Origin: a bacterium
GTDB taxonomy: Bacteria > Patescibacteriota > Dojkabacteria > JAKAPS01 > JAJZLI01
NCBI GenBank assembly: GCA_021816845.1
Contig: JAKAWT010000001.1
Coordinates: 198,087 to 262,086, forward strand
DNA: 64,000 bases
Direction of reading: 5' to 3'
Part shown: positions 14,915 to 59,600 of the stretch, in pieces
How positions within the stretch are numbered: the first letter of the stretch is position 1
How the letters are laid out: each line of letters opens with the position of its first letter
Program-made: the position numbers and the translations under genes
The notes under the pieces: generated by a model
The model's input: the letters and a program-made list of their open reading frames with translations, nothing else
Told to the model about the DNA's origin: nothing
Databases searched by the model: none

Positions 14915-16201
14915 CTATGCATAGCTTGAGTACGAACGAGTTATAAGATGTGATTTTATATTCCTTATTAGAGTCAATATTACTACTACGATAATAAGTA
15001 TACTCGTACCACCAATTGCTACACTTGTTATATTAGTATAATACTGAACTACTAATGGTATTAATGCAATAATAGTCAAAAATATTGCTCCAACAAACGT
15101 AAGTTTCAACAAAATATTATATATATAGTTTTCTGTTTGTTTACCAGGTCTAAAACCAGGGATAAACCCTCCTTGTTTTTGGATATTATTTGCTACATCA
15201 TGAGGTTTGAATACAATGAATGTATAGAAATAAGTCATAAATATTATTAAAATTCCATATATTATCCCATAGTATAACTGATTAGATAAACCATTATAAA
15301 CAAATACTGAAACATGATGTATTAGTACATTTTTACTCGTTTCTAATATTTTAGATAGTTCAGTTGGTAGCAGCACAAGAGAAAGTGCAAATATAATAGG
15401 CATAACACCTGCTGTATTTATTTTGATCGGTATATATGATTTATTCCCTCCCACAAGCTGCACTCCACGTGTCATACGAGTATAGTTAACAGGAATGTTT
15501 CTGGATGATTCGTTCACAAGTACAATAGCAATAACCATACCAATAAATAGTAATAGTAATACTAATATAATAATACCATTAATACTCTGTGACACTGCAG
15601 CCGATACTAGTGATTCTGGCATAGCAGCCAAAATACCAACAGCTATAAGTAGCGATATACCATCCCCAACCCCGTATTCAGTAATTAATTCTCCTAACCA
15701 CATAAGAAATATTGAACCAGCTGTCATTGTAATTATGAATGTTGTAAGACCCAATGGATCAAGGTTAGAAATTATAGGAGTTTGAGATACTCCAAGAAGA
15801 AACTTATAAATTCCAAATGATTGTAGCGCTGCAATAGGTACTGTAAGATATCTTGTATATTGATTTATAATCTTTTGTCCTCTATCACCTTGTTCTTGTA
15901 ATTCTTTTATTTTAGGTACTAGATAGACTAAAAATTGGAATATAACAGTAGCAGTAATAAAAGGACCTAACCCTATACCTACAATTGCAGCTGTCTGCAA
16001 TGTACCTCCAGAAAATATATTCAGAAAACTTAACGCCTGATTATTCTTAAATAGTGATGACAGAACACTTACGTTAACTCCAGGAACAGGTATTGAAGCG
16101 AAAACTCTAAATACAGCAATAAGTAATATTGTAAATAATATTTTCCTTCTAAGCTCAGGACTATTATAAAGCTCTCGAATAATATAAAAAACTTTTTGCA
16201 T
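14915..16201 (-). CDS. secY: Preprotein translocase subunit SecY
   Basis: 428 aa, 10 TM helices, and the conserved N-terminus 'ELRRKILFTILLIAVFRVFASIPVPGVN'. Confidence 0.95.
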   Translation of the reverse strand: MQKVFYIIRELYNSPELRRKILFTILLIAVFRVFASIPVPGVNVSVLSSLFKNNQALSFLNIFSGGTLQTAAIVGIGLGPFITATVIFQFLVYLVPKIKELQEQGDRGQKIINQYTRYLTVPIAALQSFGIYKFLLGVSQTPIISNLDPLGLTTFIITMTAGSIFLMWLGELITEYGVGDGISLLIAVGILAAMPESLVSAAVSQSINGIIILVLLLLFIGMVIAIVLVNESSRNIPVNYTRMTRGVQLVGGNKSYIPIKINTAGVMPIIFALSLVLLPTELSKILETSKNVLIHHVSVFVYNGLSNQLYYGIIYGILIIFMTYFYTFIVFKPHDVANNIQKQGGFIPGFRPGKQTENYIYNILLKLTFVGAIFLTIIALIPLVVQYYTNITSVAIGGTSILIIVVVILTLIRNIKSHLITRSYSSYA

Positions 16202-16632
16202 CAGAGTATTTTACCATTCGCTAATTTTATTTTATCTAAAGACGATTTAGAGAAAGATATTTTATCATTTTTGAATGATAATTTTTTTGATAATTCTCCA
16301 TCTCCTAGTATTTTAACAGTTTTTTCCTTTTTTAAAACCCCAATTTTTTTTAGTTCATCAAAGGATACTATATCATTTTCTTTGAATAATCTATCTATGT
16401 CAGATAAATTTAAAACAGCGTATTCATGTCTTTGTCTCTTAAACCCTTTAAGATAGGGAAGTCTTAATATCAATGGATTTTGTCCTCCTTCAAAAAACGG
16501 GGATATATGTACACCCGATCTGGATTTTTGACCTTTGGTCCCTCTACCAGCAGTATGTCCACCCTTACCTGATCCATAACCTCTACCTACTATTTTTTTT
16601 GATTTTTTTACAATTTTATTCTTAATTAACAT
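16201..16632 (-). CDS. rplO: 50S ribosomal protein L15
   Basis: 'GRGYGSGKGGHTAGRGTKGQKSRSG' is the L15 glycine-rich signature. No L30 gene lies between L15 and S5. Confidence 0.9.
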   Translation of the reverse strand: MLIKNKIVKKSKKIVGRGYGSGKGGHTAGRGTKGQKSRSGVHISPFFEGGQNPLILRLPYLKGFKRQRHEYAVLNLSDIDRLFKENDIVSFDELKKIGVLKKEKTVKILGDGELSKKLSFKNDKISFSKSSLDKIKLANGKIL

Positions 16633-16633
16633 A

Positions 16634-17140
16634 TTATCTTGCCTTTAAATTTTGTAAAGCTAGGAAACTACAGTATATATTTGCCTTTTTATTGGTGGAA
16701 CCAAGTCTTTTAGATAAAACATCTTTAACACCTGCAAGTTCTAAGATTGGCTTGATATTTTTCCCTGCTATAATACCTGTTCCTTGTACTGCTGGTTTAA
16801 AAAGCATTTTTGCGGCTTTAAAATCCTGTGTTATTTCATGAGTAATAGTATTCTCTGTAAGATTTATTGACACTACAGATGCTCTGGCCTTCCTTATTGC
16901 CTTCTCTATAGCAAATTTAGGATCATTTCCAACCCCCTTTCCTATACCAATTTTGCCATTCCTATTACCAACTACAACCATAGCTGAAAATCTAAATCTT
17001 TTAGCTCCTTTTGTAACCTTTGTAACTCTTTTAGTCTCAAGAATATAATGCTCATAATCAGATACAGGAGTTTTATCCTCAAGTGTTATTTCATCTATAA
17101 TTATTTCTTTTATTTCCGTTATATCTTCTTTATTCGCCAT
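16634..17140 (-). CDS. rpsE: 30S ribosomal protein S5
   Basis: 'VVVGNRNGKIGIGKGVGNDPKFAIEKAIRKA' is an S5 signature. Confidence 0.9.
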   Translation of the reverse strand: MANKEDITEIKEIIIDEITLEDKTPVSDYEHYILETKRVTKVTKGAKRFRFSAMVVVGNRNGKIGIGKGVGNDPKFAIEKAIRKARASVVSINLTENTITHEITQDFKAAKMLFKPAVQGTGIIAGKNIKPILELAGVKDVLSKRLGSTNKKANIYCSFLALQNLKAR

Positions 17141-51962: not shown

Positions 51963-52517
51963 ATGGACCTTATAAGACAAGAAATACTTAATTGTACAAA
52001 ATGTGAACTTTGCAAGGGAAGAATACATGCAGTTCCAGGGGAGGGAGCAATAAATGCTCGAATTATGTTTGTTGGAGAAGCTCCAGGTCAAAACGAGGAC
52101 CAACAAGGGATTCCTTTTTGTGGAGCATCTGGAAAATTACTTGATTTGATGCTTGAGAGTATATCACTAAAAAGAGAAGATGTTTTTATAACAAATATAG
52201 TAAAATGTAGACCCAAAGGTAACAGAGATCCAGAGAAGATTGAAATAGATACGTGCTCAAAATATTTAAAAAGGCAGATACTCCTTGTAAACCCCAAGGT
52301 CATATGCACATTAGGAAGATTTTCAATGAATTTGTTCTTCCCGGACTTTAGTATATCAAAAGTTCATGGGCAAATTTTTAAACTTTCAAAATTCAAGATT
52401 ATTCCACTCTATCATCCTGCAGTAGGATTATATAAAGATAGCATGAAAGAAACACTATTTTCTGATTTTAAAATATTAAAACAATTTACCACAATCAAGC
52501 CTAAAGAATTCTCCTAA
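51963..52517 (+). CDS. Uracil-DNA glycosylase, family 4 (Fe-S type)
   Basis: 'CTKCELC', 'IMFVGEAPGQNEDQQGIPFCGASGKLLDLML', 'FITNIVKCRPKGNRDP' and 'HPA' match family-4 UDG. Confidence 0.8.
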   Translation: MDLIRQEILNCTKCELCKGRIHAVPGEGAINARIMFVGEAPGQNEDQQGIPFCGASGKLLDLMLESISLKREDVFITNIVKCRPKGNRDPEKIEIDTCSKYLKRQILLVNPKVICTLGRFSMNLFFPDFSISKVHGQIFKLSKFKIIPLYHPAVGLYKDSMKETLFSDFKILKQFTTIKPKEFS

Positions 52518-53395: not shown

Positions 53396-54487
53396 TTAAC
53401 TCCTGAGACCAGTACCGGAACCTATTCTGAAACCTGTACCGCTGGTATGAGTACCACTGGTACGAGTACCTTTGGTGCCTGTACTTCTAGTACCTGTGTC
53501 ATTAGAGAATAATGCCTTTAGTGCTCTTAATATATTCCTCCTAAATAATATTAAAAGAATTATTATTGCTATAATGAGGAGTATTTCATATATCGGTATT
53601 ACCCAAAAACTTGTTTTACCTACTAAAGTCCCACTTTTACCTTCACTGTTATAATTAACAAATAGGGACGCAGTATATAATCCAATATAGCCTTTTGTAT
53701 TTATTTGCTCCTGGGATAAACGCACTGCACTAGGGATAACATCCAAACTTTGGATAGATATAGTTTTTACAGTATTACCAAACATATTTGAGATTACAAT
53801 CTTTCCGGTAGGCCTTAATGTTACATTTCCAGTATTTTGAATTTTCTGAATAAAATTGACTATTCCTCCTTGAGTAAACACAGGATTAGTGTAAAAATTA
53901 GTCAATGTTGCATCAACCGTGACGTTTCCTGATATAGTAAGTAATATTAAGGATCCTATCTCTGTGCCAACCCCACTCCCAGATCTTGAGTTTTGACTTG
54001 CTGAGACGGATGCTACTACAGATGCAAACCTACTCCCTGGCTGAGCATCTAAAGGTACATTTATAGTGAATCTTACATATTGATATGAATCAGGAGCAAT
54101 ACTAAGATTTGATGGACTTACAGTAATCCAAGATGCCAGAGAATACTGGTTCGATAATGCAGGAGATTGTAATTGCACCTGTCCTCTATCCCCAACAGGA
54201 GTATAGTTATCTACTAAAATAGCAGTATTTAGAGGATAAGGAGAAGTATTGTATACCTTAATAACATTTGATATCGTACTTCCAGGATTTGCTGTTAAGT
54301 TAGAAAATACAGGGGGGGATATTATGATGCCTAGAGTTTGCTTTGCAGAAGTCTGCCCTGAAGTTTGAGCATGTGAACTTTCAGGTACAACTACATAAAA
54401 AAATAAAGTTGAAAACAAAATAACGGCAAATAACGACCTAAATACAAGTTTTTCCAAACGAAGTTTCCTGAAACAAAGTTTCTTCAT
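53396..54487 (-). CDS. Cell-surface protein: signal peptide, beta-sandwich (DUF916/CARDB-like) ectodomain, C-terminal TM anchor, Gly/Thr-rich cytoplasmic tail
   Basis: N-terminal signal. 'VSPSNLSIAPDSYQYVRFTINVPLDAQPGS'-type strand patterns. C-terminal 'SFWVIPIYEILLIIAIIILLILFRRN', then a 'TGTRSTGTKGTRTSGT' tail. Confidence 0.45.
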   Translation of the reverse strand: MKKLCFRKLRLEKLVFRSLFAVILFSTLFFYVVVPESSHAQTSGQTSAKQTLGIIISPPVFSNLTANPGSTISNVIKVYNTSPYPLNTAILVDNYTPVGDRGQVQLQSPALSNQYSLASWITVSPSNLSIAPDSYQYVRFTINVPLDAQPGSRFASVVASVSASQNSRSGSGVGTEIGSLILLTISGNVTVDATLTNFYTNPVFTQGGIVNFIQKIQNTGNVTLRPTGKIVISNMFGNTVKTISIQSLDVIPSAVRLSQEQINTKGYIGLYTASLFVNYNSEGKSGTLVGKTSFWVIPIYEILLIIAIIILLILFRRNILRALKALFSNDTGTRSTGTKGTRTSGTHTSGTGFRIGSGTGLRS

Positions 54488-54558: not shown

Positions 54559-55620
54559 TTAGTAAGTTGGTGTAACTACATAATCAAGATTATTTGTATA
54601 TGTACCAGCTGGTTGAGCTGCAGTAACTCCAAGCTGAAAATTCACATATTCACTATCACCTGATGATGATGTTGCAGATGACTTAGTAGCTAGGGTAACT
54701 GGTGTAGCAGGATTCACTGGTATTGGTTCATATATAGCATTTGAGGTGAATAATGCAGAGTTATAATCTCCTGATGTAACATTAACTCCAAAACCAGTAG
54801 TTGTATTTGTAGTCCAAGTTCCAGCAGTAACATTAGGTATTGTACTTGAACTTGAATCAGTCAATAATTGGTTCTCTTGCAAAGTTACTGTATAACCGTA
54901 AGCTGCATTAGTTGTTGTTGATATTTGTTGAGCTGCAACATTAGTAGTTGCAACATTAAAATGTCCAAAAGGTAATGTGGTCGATGTTGTGGTTACAGTA
55001 GTTGCATTTTCTGCTCCAGTTGTAGAAGTCGCAGTACCTGAAGCTATTCCAGTTACAGTAAATGATAATGAAGGATCCATTGTACCTGTAACGACAACTT
55101 GTGTCACAGTAGTTGTTGCCATAACACCATAATCAGTAACAGAAGGTGTGGAACTGTTTGAAGTCACTTGGACATAAAACGTTCCAGCACTAGGGTTAGT
55201 AACAGAAGCAACAGTAACACTAACAGTTGCTGATGGTGCCGTTGCAGCAGATAATGTAACAGTTAAAACTCCGGTGGATGAGTTATATGCTCCAGTTGCA
55301 GTTGCACTACCAAACCCAGATAACGTTATAGTTGGGGTAGCTGACATTGAAAGACCCGATGGTACAGTTGTACCAGTTGCAGTTGTTGCATATTGGATAT
55401 CTATAGTAGCGACTGCAGTTGTCGTATTACTTGGATTCCATTGAATAGTTTCATTAGCTACAGTTCCAGGATTTGAGTTAGAAAGAGTAATAGATGCATG
55501 AGACACTGTGACTGTTCCAGAAGCAGCAACACTCTGAAGGAACAAAACACTACTCATTGATAATATTATAAAAAATGATACTAAACTAGCTAGAGGTCTT
55601 CTTATATCTTTTAATCTCAT
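54559..55620 (-). CDS. Secreted Thr-rich protein with WxL-like C-terminal motif (Tyr in place of Trp)
   Basis: Signal peptide 'LASLVSFFIILSMSSVLFLQSVAA'. About 45% Thr/Ser/Ala. C-terminus 'QPAGTYTNNLDYVVTPTY' resembles the WxL-domain terminal consensus 'GxYxgxLtWtLxxxP'. Confidence 0.45.
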   Translation of the reverse strand: MRLKDIRRPLASLVSFFIILSMSSVLFLQSVAASGTVTVSHASITLSNSNPGTVANETIQWNPSNTTTAVATIDIQYATTATGTTVPSGLSMSATPTITLSGFGSATATGAYNSSTGVLTVTLSAATAPSATVSVTVASVTNPSAGTFYVQVTSNSSTPSVTDYGVMATTTVTQVVVTGTMDPSLSFTVTGIASGTATSTTGAENATTVTTTSTTLPFGHFNVATTNVAAQQISTTTNAAYGYTVTLQENQLLTDSSSSTIPNVTAGTWTTNTTTGFGVNVTSGDYNSALFTSNAIYEPIPVNPATPVTLATKSSATSSSGDSEYVNFQLGVTAAQPAGTYTNNLDYVVTPTY

Positions 55621-56575
55621 GATTTACTTTTTCTAAAATTAAATTAAAACCAACACTTAGTAAGTGTTTATTTTTTACTAATACCAGAATACAGAAACCT
55701 ATTAAAAATGTCAATAATATTATAAGGTATATTGGAATTATATAGATATTCTTTATAATTTTACTACGTTGGTTATATCCATATAAAAGTGTAGATGAGA
55801 TTGTATAACTACCTATATTAAAATTATATGCAATATTTTTATCTAAAATTCTTTTTTCATTTTGCAGAATCAAATGTACTGGGAGATTAAAATTCTTACT
55901 CTTACCACTAGATTTAACAGATAAATATCCATGTTCATTAATATATGTATTACCTAAATTCTGGATTACAGTTTCTGTATTAATTGTAGGAATATTAAAC
56001 AACGGAAAATAGAAATTGGAAAAGTGAAGAGTGTTAGTTTTTATGGATATATTATTTATTCTTGAATTATAGTTTATATTCCCCCCAATTGTGATAAAGA
56101 ATAATGATCCCAGTCTTGATATAACCCCTACATTAGAATTTAATTTTTCTGTATTTAACGATTGAAAGAAAACTGTAACATAGTGTCCACCAGGTGTGGC
56201 ATCTTTGGGAACTTTTATTTCTATAGGTACATCTATAGTACCTTTTGGAGGAACAGCATAATTTAGATTTGGAAAAGAAAACCAAGATGCAGAAGCTAAT
56301 CTTGATTTATCGACAAAAAAACTAATATTACCATTTAGTCCTACAGTCCCAAAGTTTTGAGCATATACTTTAATGGCTATAGGAGCTCTTGTATTGTTAT
56401 AAAATGTCACATATTTGATAATTTGTGATCCTCTATCTAGAGTAATTATATTTAGAGAAGGATAAATAGTTTCATTCAAATTTGGATGTGTAAATGATGC
56501 ATAAGAATTTTTAGCTATCTTAATGTTGGTAACTAGAAAAATCACCAGTAGTGTAATTATTAAAATTTTTCTCAT
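55586..56575 (-). CDS. Cell-surface protein, paralog of 53396-54487 (signal peptide, beta-sandwich ectodomain, C-terminal TM anchor)
   Basis: 'IEIKVPKDATPGGHYVTVFFQS' and C-terminal 'NIYIIPIYLIILLTFLIGFCILVLVKNK' parallel the other anchored protein (shared IPIY-TM motif). Overlaps the upstream gene by 35 nt. Confidence 0.45.
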   Translation of the reverse strand: MRKILIITLLVIFLVTNIKIAKNSYASFTHPNLNETIYPSLNIITLDRGSQIIKYVTFYNNTRAPIAIKVYAQNFGTVGLNGNISFFVDKSRLASASWFSFPNLNYAVPPKGTIDVPIEIKVPKDATPGGHYVTVFFQSLNTEKLNSNVGVISRLGSLFFITIGGNINYNSRINNISIKTNTLHFSNFYFPLFNIPTINTETVIQNLGNTYINEHGYLSVKSSGKSKNFNLPVHLILQNEKRILDKNIAYNFNIGSYTISSTLLYGYNQRSKIIKNIYIIPIYLIILLTFLIGFCILVLVKNKHLLSVGFNLILEKVNHEIKRYKKTSS

Positions 56576-56601
56576 AACCTAATCACAGTTTGTATAATAA
56601 T

Positions 56602-59600
56602 TTAGAATGATGATACTACAGTATACACAATATTAGTTTGATATGTACCCGGAGATTGTATAGATTGTACTGCAACCTTATAGGTGATAGTGTAGTTAGT
56701 TGGGGTGGTAGTATAATTTGACCCTGTAATATTTGTTTGGTTCTCAGCTACAACATCTCCAGGCCCTGATTGTGAGAAAGGTGCATATAGTGTCCCGTTA
56801 GAAAAAAGGTTGACACCATTTATATCTGTAGCAGAACTGGTATACCCAAATCCATAATCTCCACTAGGCCATGAGGCTGGCGATGCATAAGACCCAGCAG
56901 AGAAATTAGGTATTGTATTTGAAGAATTTTGCAGTGACGTTAATATTGACGTTTCATAAGCAGAAATTGTATACCCGTTATAAGCATTTGTTAAAACTGA
57001 TAAAGTTGAGGTGTTAGTCGTAGTATAGGAATTAGTAGCATTCCAATCACCTAAATTAACAGCTGAAGAATTGAGAGAGAAAGACAGTGTAGGAACAACA
57101 TATTGGCCTGATGATGTAACTGTAGTAGTTAAACCAGCATTATTGATGGCCTGCACACTAACATAATATGTTTGACCGGTATGTAGAGGAAGAGATGATA
57201 AAGAAACTGTGTTATATGGACTAGGGTTATTTAGGACAACTGAAGATGAAGAATACGCATATATATTTGTACCTCCAGGAGTAGTTCCAACTGCGACTTG
57301 ATAAGGCGTAGAGGCAAGTCCTGAACAGGTATCAGAAAAACCTGTCCAATTTGCACCCAGTGATGATATTGAGGCAGTAGTATTAGTTTCTGTCCCAGTT
57401 ACTGACCCATCATATACTGTTCCTGCTGTGGGTGCACTATCAGATACGGAAAAATTAGGATTCACAGAATTGAAAACTACAGGTGAAGATAAACCACTTG
57501 AGTTCTTCACAAATGCCTGCCAATGATATCCAGTACAATTAGTTAACCCTGTGACATCTACAATCCCTGTTACAGCAGTACCAGAATAATTTACAGCAGT
57601 ACCAGAATAGTTTGGTGTACCAGTAAATGCCGTACCATTTTGTTGAAGCTCGATTTCTGGGGTAAGAGTATCAGTACTATTTGGTGATGACATAGAGAAT
57701 TGAAACACAACATTCGTGGTTATACCACTCGTAGTCCAAGTATCATTAGTAATTTGTGTAGTTCCATTTGATTGAAGTTGTTCCAAAGATGTAGGAGCAT
57801 TTGGTGCACCAGCTGTAGGTGGTGGTGTAAAATTATATTCAAAATTTACATTCTCCAAAGATGTATTTCCCACGTTATCATATATAACGACATTTAAATA
57901 GTACATACCAGATGTTGTAAGTGATGGGGAAAGATAACCTTCAGTTGTTTGAGTACTTACAGGGTAATCAGTAGCAGTCTGCCCGAAATATACACCATAA
58001 TTTGTAATCCCAGAACCTTGATCATATCCACCTAAAAATTCAAAATAGGGAGTGGTGTAAGTATATGGGGTAGGATTCCCATATGCAAGTTGAGTTAACC
58101 CTGAAGTATCTTCAACATTAATATTATCCATATTCATATTGATGCTGTCAGAAGTGGCATCAGTTACAGCACCAAGAGTGAGAGTAGTCATATTAGACAC
58201 ACCAGTATTCTGACTTGTCAAAGACACTTGTTGTGAACCATTCAAATATGTATAAATACTCCCAGTAGTACCACTAATTGATAGATCAAATACAATAACA
58301 TTCCAAGTATTTAAAGGTAAAATAGTCGTACCTTGAGAAGAAGTAGCTCCAACAGAGTTAGTAGCCTGTAGTACTGGTCCAGAGCTTGTATCTAGCAGGT
58401 TTAAAGTTGCAATTGTACCTGATGCTCCAGATATACTCATAAGTGTAATGCTATCACCAGTTGCTGCAAATGCCACAGCAGAAACATTTATATACATCCT
58501 CACTTGAGCAGAAGAAGTATTAAATGTATCATTAGCAATATAGCTTGTACCTGCTGCAGAGGTTGCCATGTTTACCGAGTATGTTCCTTGTAATACATGA
58601 CCTTGTATGTTGTTTTGGATAAGTGGGAGAGATGTTCCTCCATCTGAAGTCCAACCACCTGCAGGAGATGAAGTAGTCAAAATTGTCCCACTCTCAAATC
58701 CATTTGAGAATAAAGCTGTTGGTTGTCCAGACCAAGCAATGACATTTGTACCTCCAGATATAGGGGATGATGTGTCAATACCAAAGTCAGGATTGCCTCC
58801 CATTGCAACCCATGAGCTTACCCCATCTGCATTTTCAACTGTAGCCTGCCAGTGGTACTGAGTATTCGATGGAAGCCCAGAAATAGTGACACTTGCAACA
58901 ATACTTGTACCTGAATATGAATATGCTATACTTTTATACACTCCAACTCCTGATGTTACAAAATTAGTAGTTGAATTTGTGAAGGCAGTACCATTAGGCT
59001 GTACTTCTACCAACAAATATAAAGTGTCTGGATTATTTGGACTTGATATTGTAGCACCCAAATTTATACTATTATGGTTAAGCCACGACCCAGATGTAAT
59101 TGATGAAGAAGAGACACTTGATGTAGAGACAGCAACACCTGTTGGAGTTAAAATTGTACCATTTGCAGTTATCGAAACTTCAGTTGAAGGAAGAGTTTCC
59201 CCAGAAGATGTTATACCAGTAACTTCATAATAGTAGGTAGTCCCATATGGTATATTTCCACCAACTGATGATGTAGATGAGGATGCAATTGTGGGGGCAG
59301 TTCCTCCACTTGAAGGTGGAGAACCTGAAGAGGGAGTATTAAACCCTGAATCTATAAATGTAGTTGTAACAGAGTTATTTATTAGGAAATATGTAGTTTC
59401 TCCTCCTGAAGAACTCCCTTTATATACTTTATATGAGGTTGCCCCACTCAAGGCATTCCACGTAATTGTGTTTTGATTAGTATTGGTATATGCAACATTT
59501 AAAGTTGATGGAACATTAAGATATCCCCACAATACATATTGATATGTGTTAGTACCATCATATCCTCCCACTGTGTATACATACCCATTGTATATTACAG

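Follow-up and report, generated by a model that had tools for sequence, protein, structure and literature searches.

Why do two secreted proteins encoded in one 64,000-nucleotide stretch of a Dojkabacteria (Patescibacteriota) genome (contig JAKAWT010000001.1, positions 198,087 to 262,086; the whole stretch is called the window below) finish on nearly the same residues? The two open reading frames (ORFs), of 353 and 1922 amino acids (aa), end in AAQPAGTYTNNLDYVVTPTY and SIQSPGTYQTNIVYTVVSSF, respectively, directly before the stop codon. A preliminary description of the window had quoted both tails, which are indeed present in the sequence, and had read them as a shared motif on otherwise unrelated proteins, probably a sorting or attachment signal. 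This observation is real but was mis-scoped. In both proteins the motif forms the final beta-strand of a C-terminal domain of ~160–170 residues of the Pam pilin type, and the tail is accounted for by a pilus system that Troman et al. published in 2026 (bioRxiv 10.64898/2026.03.03.709456), of which the locus is a divergent member with a giant putative tip adhesin. We consider it likely that the locus is a divergent pam-like pilus operon whose product would form through donor-strand exchange, the motif being the terminal strand of the acceptor domain. The features are collected in Table 1.

A six-frame scan of the window with the pattern G[TS]Y.{2,3}[NT]..[YFW].V returned solely the two C-termini, while a looser pattern gave one further match, which lies internally in a Kelch repeat of the 1922-aa protein (hereafter the giant). 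In BLASTP, the 353-aa protein (hereafter the pilin) matches the giant over its last ~129 residues with 29% identity (E=1e-5), and the landmarks TNAxxGYT[VI], SS(S/N)TIPN(V/F)(T/S)AG and GFG are common to both. A profile of the C-terminal domain that was built without any giants aligns to residues ~1761–1922 of the giant with E=2e-12. The two proteins are thus not otherwise unrelated, as the whole C-terminal domain is common to both. Since both are strongly composition-biased, to the point that the HMMER bias filter hides the domain of the giant, a chance or compositional resemblance of two Thr/Ser/Asn-rich low-complexity proteins has to be weighed here. However, the pairwise and profile matches are significant with composition correction, the tail keeps the same register at the stop codon in 150/150 relatives (the best 150 of 1808, see below) and synteny is conserved. 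Chance resemblance of the tails is excluded, and we give this explanation next to no weight.

Relatives of the domain were collected by an exhaustive HMMER search with a three-sequence profile, counting cluster representatives. At E≤1e-3 this yielded 1808 representatives, 932 of them reaching E≤1e-10; when the C-terminal domain of a single sequence was used in a word-indexed search, one relative only was found. Tail position and residue frequencies were scored in the best 150 of the 1808 representatives. The domain ends 0–3 residues from the stop in 150/150 and exactly at the C-terminus in 147. The pattern Yx3[LIVM]x[YFW][IVLT]x4[FYW] is terminal in 147 of the 150 and internal in none. The literal expression first suggested for such a search, [AP]GTY.TN..Y.VV, is too narrow and matches 0/150 of these relatives. 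The family consensus of the tail reads LQEAG(D)DY[TS]xTLTY[IV][AC]TP[TV][FY] up to the stop, and its true invariants are the Tyr at −13 (148 of 150), the Tyr at −7 (147), the Thr-Pro pair at −4/−3 (142 and 134) and the terminal Phe or Tyr (148). The two most conserved 9-residue segments of the whole family fall in residues 335–353, at 3.5 bits per column. An N-terminal hydrophobic leader is present in ~120 of 128 full-length relatives (~94%), in line with export.

A strictly C-terminal tail that is strongly conserved in exported proteins could also be a true sorting or processing signal, which a dedicated transpeptidase, protease or secretion component would recognise before the tail is cleaved or attached covalently. 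As had been stated at the outset, the tail matches none of LPxTG, PEP-CTERM, Por-CTD or literal WxL: Pfam and NCBIfam gave no match for LPxTG, PEP-CTERM or the Por/T9SS (type IX secretion system) C-terminal domain of ~80 aa, and the ends TPTY and VSSF are not followed by a hydrophobic helix or a basic tail. Moreover, the motif forms the closing strand of a domain that folds well instead of standing as a tag behind a linker, the tail and the remainder of the domain co-vary in the 1808 relatives, and neither the operon nor its immediate neighbours include a sortase, exosortase or rhombosortase-like gene. A cleaved or covalently attached tail is thus very unlikely. Of the proposed sorting or attachment signal, it holds that exported proteins share a conserved signature at the C-terminus; it does not hold that this is a separable tag, the tail being the last strand of a folded domain. 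The domain would serve attachment in a loose sense, by joining giant and pilin into a fibre through strand complementation and not through signal cleavage. An outer-membrane beta-signal, which also has a terminal aromatic residue, was considered and rejected, as the organisms are of the candidate phyla radiation (CPR) type without outer-membrane evidence and the strand belongs to a soluble immunoglobulin (Ig)-like domain.

The family of the domain is given by NCBIfam NF058581 (‘CPR_Pam_pilin_C - Pam pilus system pilin subunit’; model length 148, curated cutoff 55 bits). The pilin matches this model with E=9.2e-7 (29.1 bits) and the last 190 aa of the giant, when scanned alone, with E=5.2e-9 (36.3 bits), both over positions 2–148 of the 148. 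A profile of the pilin's family recovered the relatives P0173–P0176 and P0179, which score 137–151 bits on NF058581, above the cutoff, and co-align with the pilin over their full length. In BLASTP, P0174 (151 bits) matches the pilin with E=7e-10 (29% identity, 251 aa) and the C-terminal domain of the giant with E=0.007. The C-termini of the cutoff-passing relatives read PAGTY(T/Q)TTLTYICTPTF (PAGTYTTTLTYICTPTF). No Pfam model matches the C-terminal domain in the two window proteins or in 50 relatives. A whole-protein NCBIfam scan of the giant gave no NF058581 match at E≤1, and the domain is found only with the isolated C-terminus; likewise, hmmsearch with default filters misses the window giant and 4 of 5 related giants, all of which are recovered with --max. 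The domain of the giant is hidden in whole-protein scans because of the HMMER composition and bias filters.

According to Troman et al. (2026 preprint, bioRxiv 10.64898/2026.03.03.709456; NCBIfam NF058581 and NF058579), PamA and PamB were identified by cryo-electron microscopy (cryo-EM) in filaments of Ca. Mycosynbacter amalyticus, a CPR bacterium. In both, the C-terminal domain is an incomplete Ig-like fold, an open barrel that accepts the linker of the next subunit and is completed by it, i.e. donor-strand exchange. The pam operon also encodes PapD/FimC-like chaperones with C-terminal transmembrane helices (PamC and PamD), a single-domain tip protein (PamT) and a membrane-anchored, RbmA-like (tandem Ig/Fn3) terminator (PamR), for which a donor strand at the N-terminus is proposed.

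The pilin of the window has a comparable layout. Its AlphaFold2 (AF2) model (predicted local distance difference test, pLDDT, 85.6; ~90 in the C-terminal domain) consists of a helix at 7–27, strands at 40–171, a disordered segment at 172–184 and strands at 185–351, the last predicted beta-strand covering residues 345–351. The linker at 172–184 is unstructured in this monomer model, with a pLDDT of 63–73, as expected of a strand in need of a partner. Across the family it has the consensus IIDDVTVTA, in which hydrophobic residues alternate; columns I171, V175, V177, A179 and V181 are near-invariant, and residues 171–179 are among the top eight most conserved 9-residue segments of the family. Very probably, the tail strand contributes to the site in which the donated strand binds, and the two strands may touch directly. 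A search of the pilin profile against PDB sequences returned nothing meaningful. The N-terminal domain (55108–55521) has a weak Pfam DUF2808 match at residues 63–157 (E=3.3e-4, below cutoff), which is also seen in 4 of 50 relatives, and one pilin domain resembles the Ig-like folds of BslA and YcnI in Foldseek.

The giant differs from the pilin in what precedes the shared domain. Besides the Pam-type domain, Pfam identifies Kelch (E=3e-28) and TIG (E=2e-9) in it. A profile of ordinary pilins aligns to the giant only from profile position 25, leaving the linker segment unmatched, and in proteins of at least 1344 aa the alignment to the domain profile starts at 11–28, whereas it starts at position 1 in 108 of 117 ordinary pilins. 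In the tip adhesins FimH and PapG, binding modules are fused to an acceptor domain without a donor strand. Because the giant likewise combines an acceptor domain and binding modules without a recognisable donor strand, it is read as a putative distal pilus-tip adhesin. Homologous giants of 1613–2234 aa occupy the same operon position in 5 related metagenome-assembled genomes (MAGs). A 2294-aa relative of the giant (P0102) also ends in a Pam-type domain, with YTSTVVYTATAQY before the stop, and contains an M23 peptidoglycan DD-endopeptidase domain at residues ~181–292 (E=3e-20).

Both proteins are encoded in a run of five tightly packed minus-strand genes, in the order giant, 329-aa protein, pilin, 363-aa protein, 297-aa protein. 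This order of giant, chaperone, pilin, chaperone and anchor is kept in the 5 related MAGs (L003–L007), and the same five genes follow each other on an identical contig of GCA_027425395.1. The 329-aa and 363-aa proteins are paralogues (BLASTP E=6e-14). The AF2 model of the 363-aa protein (pLDDT 85.7; predicted template modelling score, pTM, 0.72) has a chaperone fold: its top Foldseek matches are the Enterococcus faecium WxLIP structures 9i1y (9i1y_A, E=8e-11) and 9i25, followed by CfaA, CsuC, CupB2, Caf1M, EcpB, FimC, PapD and FaeE. Behind its transmembrane helix, this protein has a repeat-like tail of ~35 residues rich in Gly, Thr, Arg and Ser (53396–53500, NDTGTRSTGTKGTRTSGTHTSGTGFRIGSGTGLRS), which is missing from its 308–328-aa homologues in the related MAGs. 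The 297-aa protein matches Pfam Big_6 (E=4e-8), and a protein of this type closes the operon in 5/5 related loci. Its mature N-terminus, ETFNISVSVTISPTTLVF, with the conserved form (E/Q)T(F/Y)NISVSVTISPTTLVF, resembles the pilin linker plus first strand of the C-terminal domain, QVVVTGTMDPSLSF, and by analogy it may be a PamR-like anchor. The 3′ end of its gene overlaps that of a convergent uracil-DNA glycosylase gene (51963–52517, plus strand) by 17 nucleotides (52501–52517).

Table 1. Features of the pam-like locus (positions in the window; residue numbers refer to the respective protein)
Feature	Position	Strand	Layout or sequence	Evidence
Candidate terminator/membrane anchor (PamR-like), Ig-like, 297 aa	52501..53394	-	Signal peptide, C-terminal transmembrane helix	
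Chaperone-like protein 2, membrane-anchored, 363 aa	53396..54487	-	Signal peptide; beta-sandwiches 54-161 and 175-296; flexible loop ~162-174; transmembrane helix 299-327; cytoplasmic tail	
Major pilin candidate, 353 aa	54559..55620	-	Signal peptide 1-33; N-terminal beta-sandwich ~34-171; linker/candidate donor strand ~172-184; C-terminal acceptor domain 185-353	NF058581, BLASTP to P0174, AF2 model
Motif in pilin, last strand of C-terminal domain	54562..54609	-	AGTYTNNLDYVVTPTY	Conservation, predicted strand
Candidate donor (linker) strand of pilin	55069..55107	-	TQVVVTGTMDPSL	Conservation, AF2; role inferred from PamA/PamB cryo-EM description
Chaperone-like protein 1, membrane-anchored, PamC/PamD-like and WxLIP-like, 329 aa	55586..56575	-	Signal peptide; two Ig-like domains; C-terminal transmembrane helix	
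Giant secreted protein, putative pilus tip adhesin, 1922 aa	56602..62370	-	N-terminal hydrophobic leader; TIG/IPT domains; many Kelch repeats; Fn3-like modules; C-terminal Pam-type domain	
Pam-type C-terminal domain of giant, residues ~1767-1922	56605..57072	-		NF058581, C-terminal domain profile, BLASTP
Motif in giant, end of its Pam-type domain	56605-56652	-	PGTYQTNIVYTVVSSF	

The locus thus resembles the published Pam system in several respects: NF058581 matches both window proteins over its full length, the pilin is two-domained with a conserved linker, there are two paralogous chaperone-like proteins each with a C-terminal transmembrane helix, an Ig-like protein with a transmembrane helix stands at the end of the operon, and all five components carry Sec leaders. 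The type of genome is also alike. The ribosomal genes S5 (16634–17140) and L15 (16201–16632) in the region 16201–17140 (minus strand) are separated by 1 nucleotide and followed by SecY, leaving no L30 gene between them, and the GC content of the window is 30.9%; both features fit a CPR/Patescibacteria genome. The relatives, for their part, are named Pacebacteria, Minisyncoccia, Nomurabacteria or Saccharimonadales. Unlike the single-domain PamT, the tip candidate here is a 1922-aa TIG/Kelch/Fn3 protein, and the locus is without paired cysteines.

Several points weigh against assigning the locus to a Pam-type pilus. Neither window protein reaches the curated cutoff of NF058581, which puts both in a divergent branch outside the core PamA/B/E/T set. 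A single pilin gene is found at the locus, whereas M. amalyticus has PamA, PamB and PamE. The preprint's ATP-synthase context was not found among the immediate neighbours of the operon, and the NCBIfam Pam models match neither the chaperones nor the 297-aa protein. A Foldseek search of the pilin model against the PDB, in which Pam structures are lacking, gave only generic tandem-Ig adhesins with a template modelling score of ~0.2. The 23-residue hydrophobic leader of the giant could be a signal anchor, which would be incompatible with a position at the tip. Finally, the roles of chaperone and terminator come from AlphaFold-based proposals in a preprint without peer review (10.64898/2026.03.03.709456). 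The word ‘adhesin’ is absent from the main text of that preprint, where the neighbourhood is said only to contain a ‘tail fibre-like protein’.

If the locus does encode a Pam-type pilus, its assembly might proceed as follows. All five proteins would be exported by Sec. The two paralogous chaperones, tethered to the membrane by their C-terminal helix, would cap the open groove of each new C-terminal domain with a strand derived from a loop. The giant would be incorporated first, because it has an acceptor domain and no recognisable linker strand, and would come to lie at the distal tip, displaying its TIG/Kelch/Fn3 array for host binding. Pilins would then polymerise behind it in turn, each inserting its linker (~TQVVVTGTMDP) into the groove of the previous subunit. 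The series would end with the 297-aa Ig protein, whose N-terminal strand would enter the last pilin and keep the fibre tied to the membrane.

Such a scheme recalls the chaperone-usher pili of Gram-negative bacteria (Pap, Fim, CFA/I, Csu, Caf1), where an incomplete Ig-like subunit is completed by a donated strand, the chaperone is a two-domain PapD-like protein (Foldseek E-values of 1e-10 to 3e-7 for CfaA, CsuC, Caf1M, FimC and PapD) and the tip adhesin (FimH, PapG) is a binding module plus a pilin domain without donor strand. The C-terminus of the subunits is reportedly conserved there as well: it is hydrophobic at every other position, a Gly lies ~14 residues from the end, and the final or next-to-final residue is aromatic, as Kuehn et al. 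in 1993 and Sauer and Choudhury in 1999 are said to have described; this C-terminal strand is reportedly contacted by both the chaperone and the donor strand. Unlike in these systems, there is no evidence of an outer membrane, the window chaperones are membrane-tethered, the candidate donor strand is an internal linker instead of an N-terminal extension, and the window proteins have no detectable sequence similarity to them. Pfam and NCBIfam scans found no usher among the five operon genes.

The top Foldseek matches of the chaperone lead to a second system, the WxL/WxLIP (Csc) clusters of Bacillota (Hassan & Williamson 2022/2023; PMC9772566, PMC10599100), for which Pfam PF13731 (WxL), PF06030 and PF11797 (WxLIP, made up of DUF916, DUF3324 and a transmembrane helix) and the PDB entries 9i1y and 9i25 served as references. 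Homology between the Pam chaperones and WxLIP is firm. Pfam WxLIP_PGBD (DUF916, PF06030) matches 28 of 39 members of the chaperone family (best E=2.6e-7), among the window chaperones weakly the 329-aa protein (E=0.059) and not the 363-aa protein. The family profile finds EfmWxLIP1 in the PDB with E=1.5e-5, and its hhalign comparison with six genuine Firmicutes WxLIPs, taken from plasmids of Enterococcus, Bacillus, Companilactobacillus and Terribacillus, gives a probability of 98.4% (E=8e-15, 230 columns).

The relationship between the pilin domain and the WxL domain is only suggestive. PF13731 matches 0/50 relatives at E≤10. Hhalign of the C-terminal domain against 15 genuine WxL domains gives P=0.017–0.032, versus 0.34 for the reversed control, and the observed score is reached by 0/100 column shuffles and 2/100 block shuffles. 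The alignment is collinear, pairing PFG with FxFG, TNAxxG[FY]xVTV with DxRGxxxGWxLxV, and AGxYxxxLxYVxTPxF with AGxYxxxLTWxLxxAP. The two Trp-x-Leu motifs are absent at the matching positions, where the pilin has GYTV and DYVV and the giant GYTI and VYTV; Tyr or Phe stands in the window proteins where the WxL motifs have Trp.

The two kinds of cluster are built alike. In both, a transmembrane-anchored partner, homologous by sequence profile and by fold, is encoded adjacent to a small protein and a large one that carries the domain at the very C-terminus, as described for DUF916/WxLIP-type loci (PMC9772566). According to AF2, a loop strand of WxLIP is predicted to fill a gap in the WxL sandwich (PMC10599100), which is the principle of chaperone capping. 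Unlike WxL clusters, the window locus has no LPxTG partner protein, and its pilin contains a further N-terminal domain and a linker, neither of which is present in small WxL proteins; WxL proteins, in turn, are described as peptidoglycan-binding and not as fibres.

These parallels raise the possibility of a WxL-type display without any fibre, in which the C-terminal domain would, by strand complementation, dock each protein permanently on the membrane-anchored, WxLIP-like partner and/or on the cell wall, and the giant adhesin would be presented unpolymerised at the cell surface. The homology of the window partners to Firmicutes WxLIP (hhalign, EfmWxLIP1, Foldseek), the title of 9i25 (‘WxLIP bound to long WxL’), the equal cluster architecture and the likeness of the tails (AGxYxxxLx[YW] here, AGxYxxxLTWxL in WxL) are all in its favour. 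However, the pilin has a conserved linker with alternating hydrophobic residues and an extra N-terminal domain, like the filament-forming PamA and PamB, and it can be aligned directly to proteins scoring above the cutoff of the Pam pilin model, while Pfam WxL matches none of 50 relatives and the profile similarity to WxL is only suggestive. As the linker is conserved and the pilin is directly homologous to Pam pilins that form filaments, we consider display alone unlikely and prefer the fibre assembled by donor-strand exchange.

A broader reading would unite the two systems. Pam pili and WxL/WxLIP (Csc) clusters might form one ancient superfamily of usher-less strand complementation in single-membrane bacteria, with membrane-tethered PapD-like chaperones and with the tail G-x-Y-x3-L-x-[Y/W] as the shared strand of the acceptor site; we put this forward tentatively, as a possibility that falls somewhat short of even chances. 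A link between Pam and WxL goes unmentioned in the preprint (10.64898/2026.03.03.709456), and the terms ‘WxL’ and ‘donor strand’ co-occur, once each, in a 2013 review. Two proteins considered as bridges to Firmicutes (P0232 and P0233) were rejected, as they do not lie in WxL loci.

Two further loci were noted in the course of this comparison. On the Terribacillus goriensis plasmid pT1 (NZ_CP008877.1; L016, 5327–9174), a WxL cluster of a small WxL protein, a 691-aa large protein and a DUF916 protein lies within a block of conjugation genes, flanked by a lytic transglycosylase/C40 peptidase and by VirD4-like and TrbL-like genes, an arrangement that points to a possible role as mating adhesin. 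The JGI contig Ga0645781_12167 (L008, 85–7761) encodes a DUF916/WxLIP-like protein of 271 aa with no evident C-terminal transmembrane helix, together with several signal-peptide proteins of ~200 aa that end in similar strands, QGTYTSTVVLTMIEIP and ADTYTLNIILTLSNTMP, before the stop. The latter match neither the Pam C-terminal domain profile nor the WxL profile, and the locus may represent a further related strand-complementation system.

For annotation, the tail offers a usable marker: a CPR ORF that ends in Y-x3-[LIV]-x-Y-[IV]-x-T-P-x-[FY] directly before the stop is very likely a Pam-type pilus subunit or tip protein. The current curated models overlook the divergent branch, both window proteins being below the cutoff, and annotation pipelines will overlook such tip proteins, as whole-protein scans lose the giant entirely. 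Giant tip adhesins of this kind are candidates for host recognition by ultrasmall episymbiotic bacteria, the contact between pilin and host having been left open by the Pam preprint, and a cell-wall hydrolase at the pilus tip, as P0102 might be, would suit a parasitic lifestyle. The chaperone link also joins Pam to the long-enigmatic WxL/WxLIP clusters of enterococci, listeriae and lactobacilli and suggests a common mechanism that is testable. If the proposed superfamily is true, Pam pilins would no longer count as ‘exclusive to CPR’, and donor-strand exchange would be the way in which WxL proteins, currently taken for peptidoglycan binders, dock or polymerise. Within CPR, the giants with this C-terminal domain, among them the one with the Kelch arrays of the window and P0102 with its M23 domain, would be pilus-tip effectors contacting or breaching the host.

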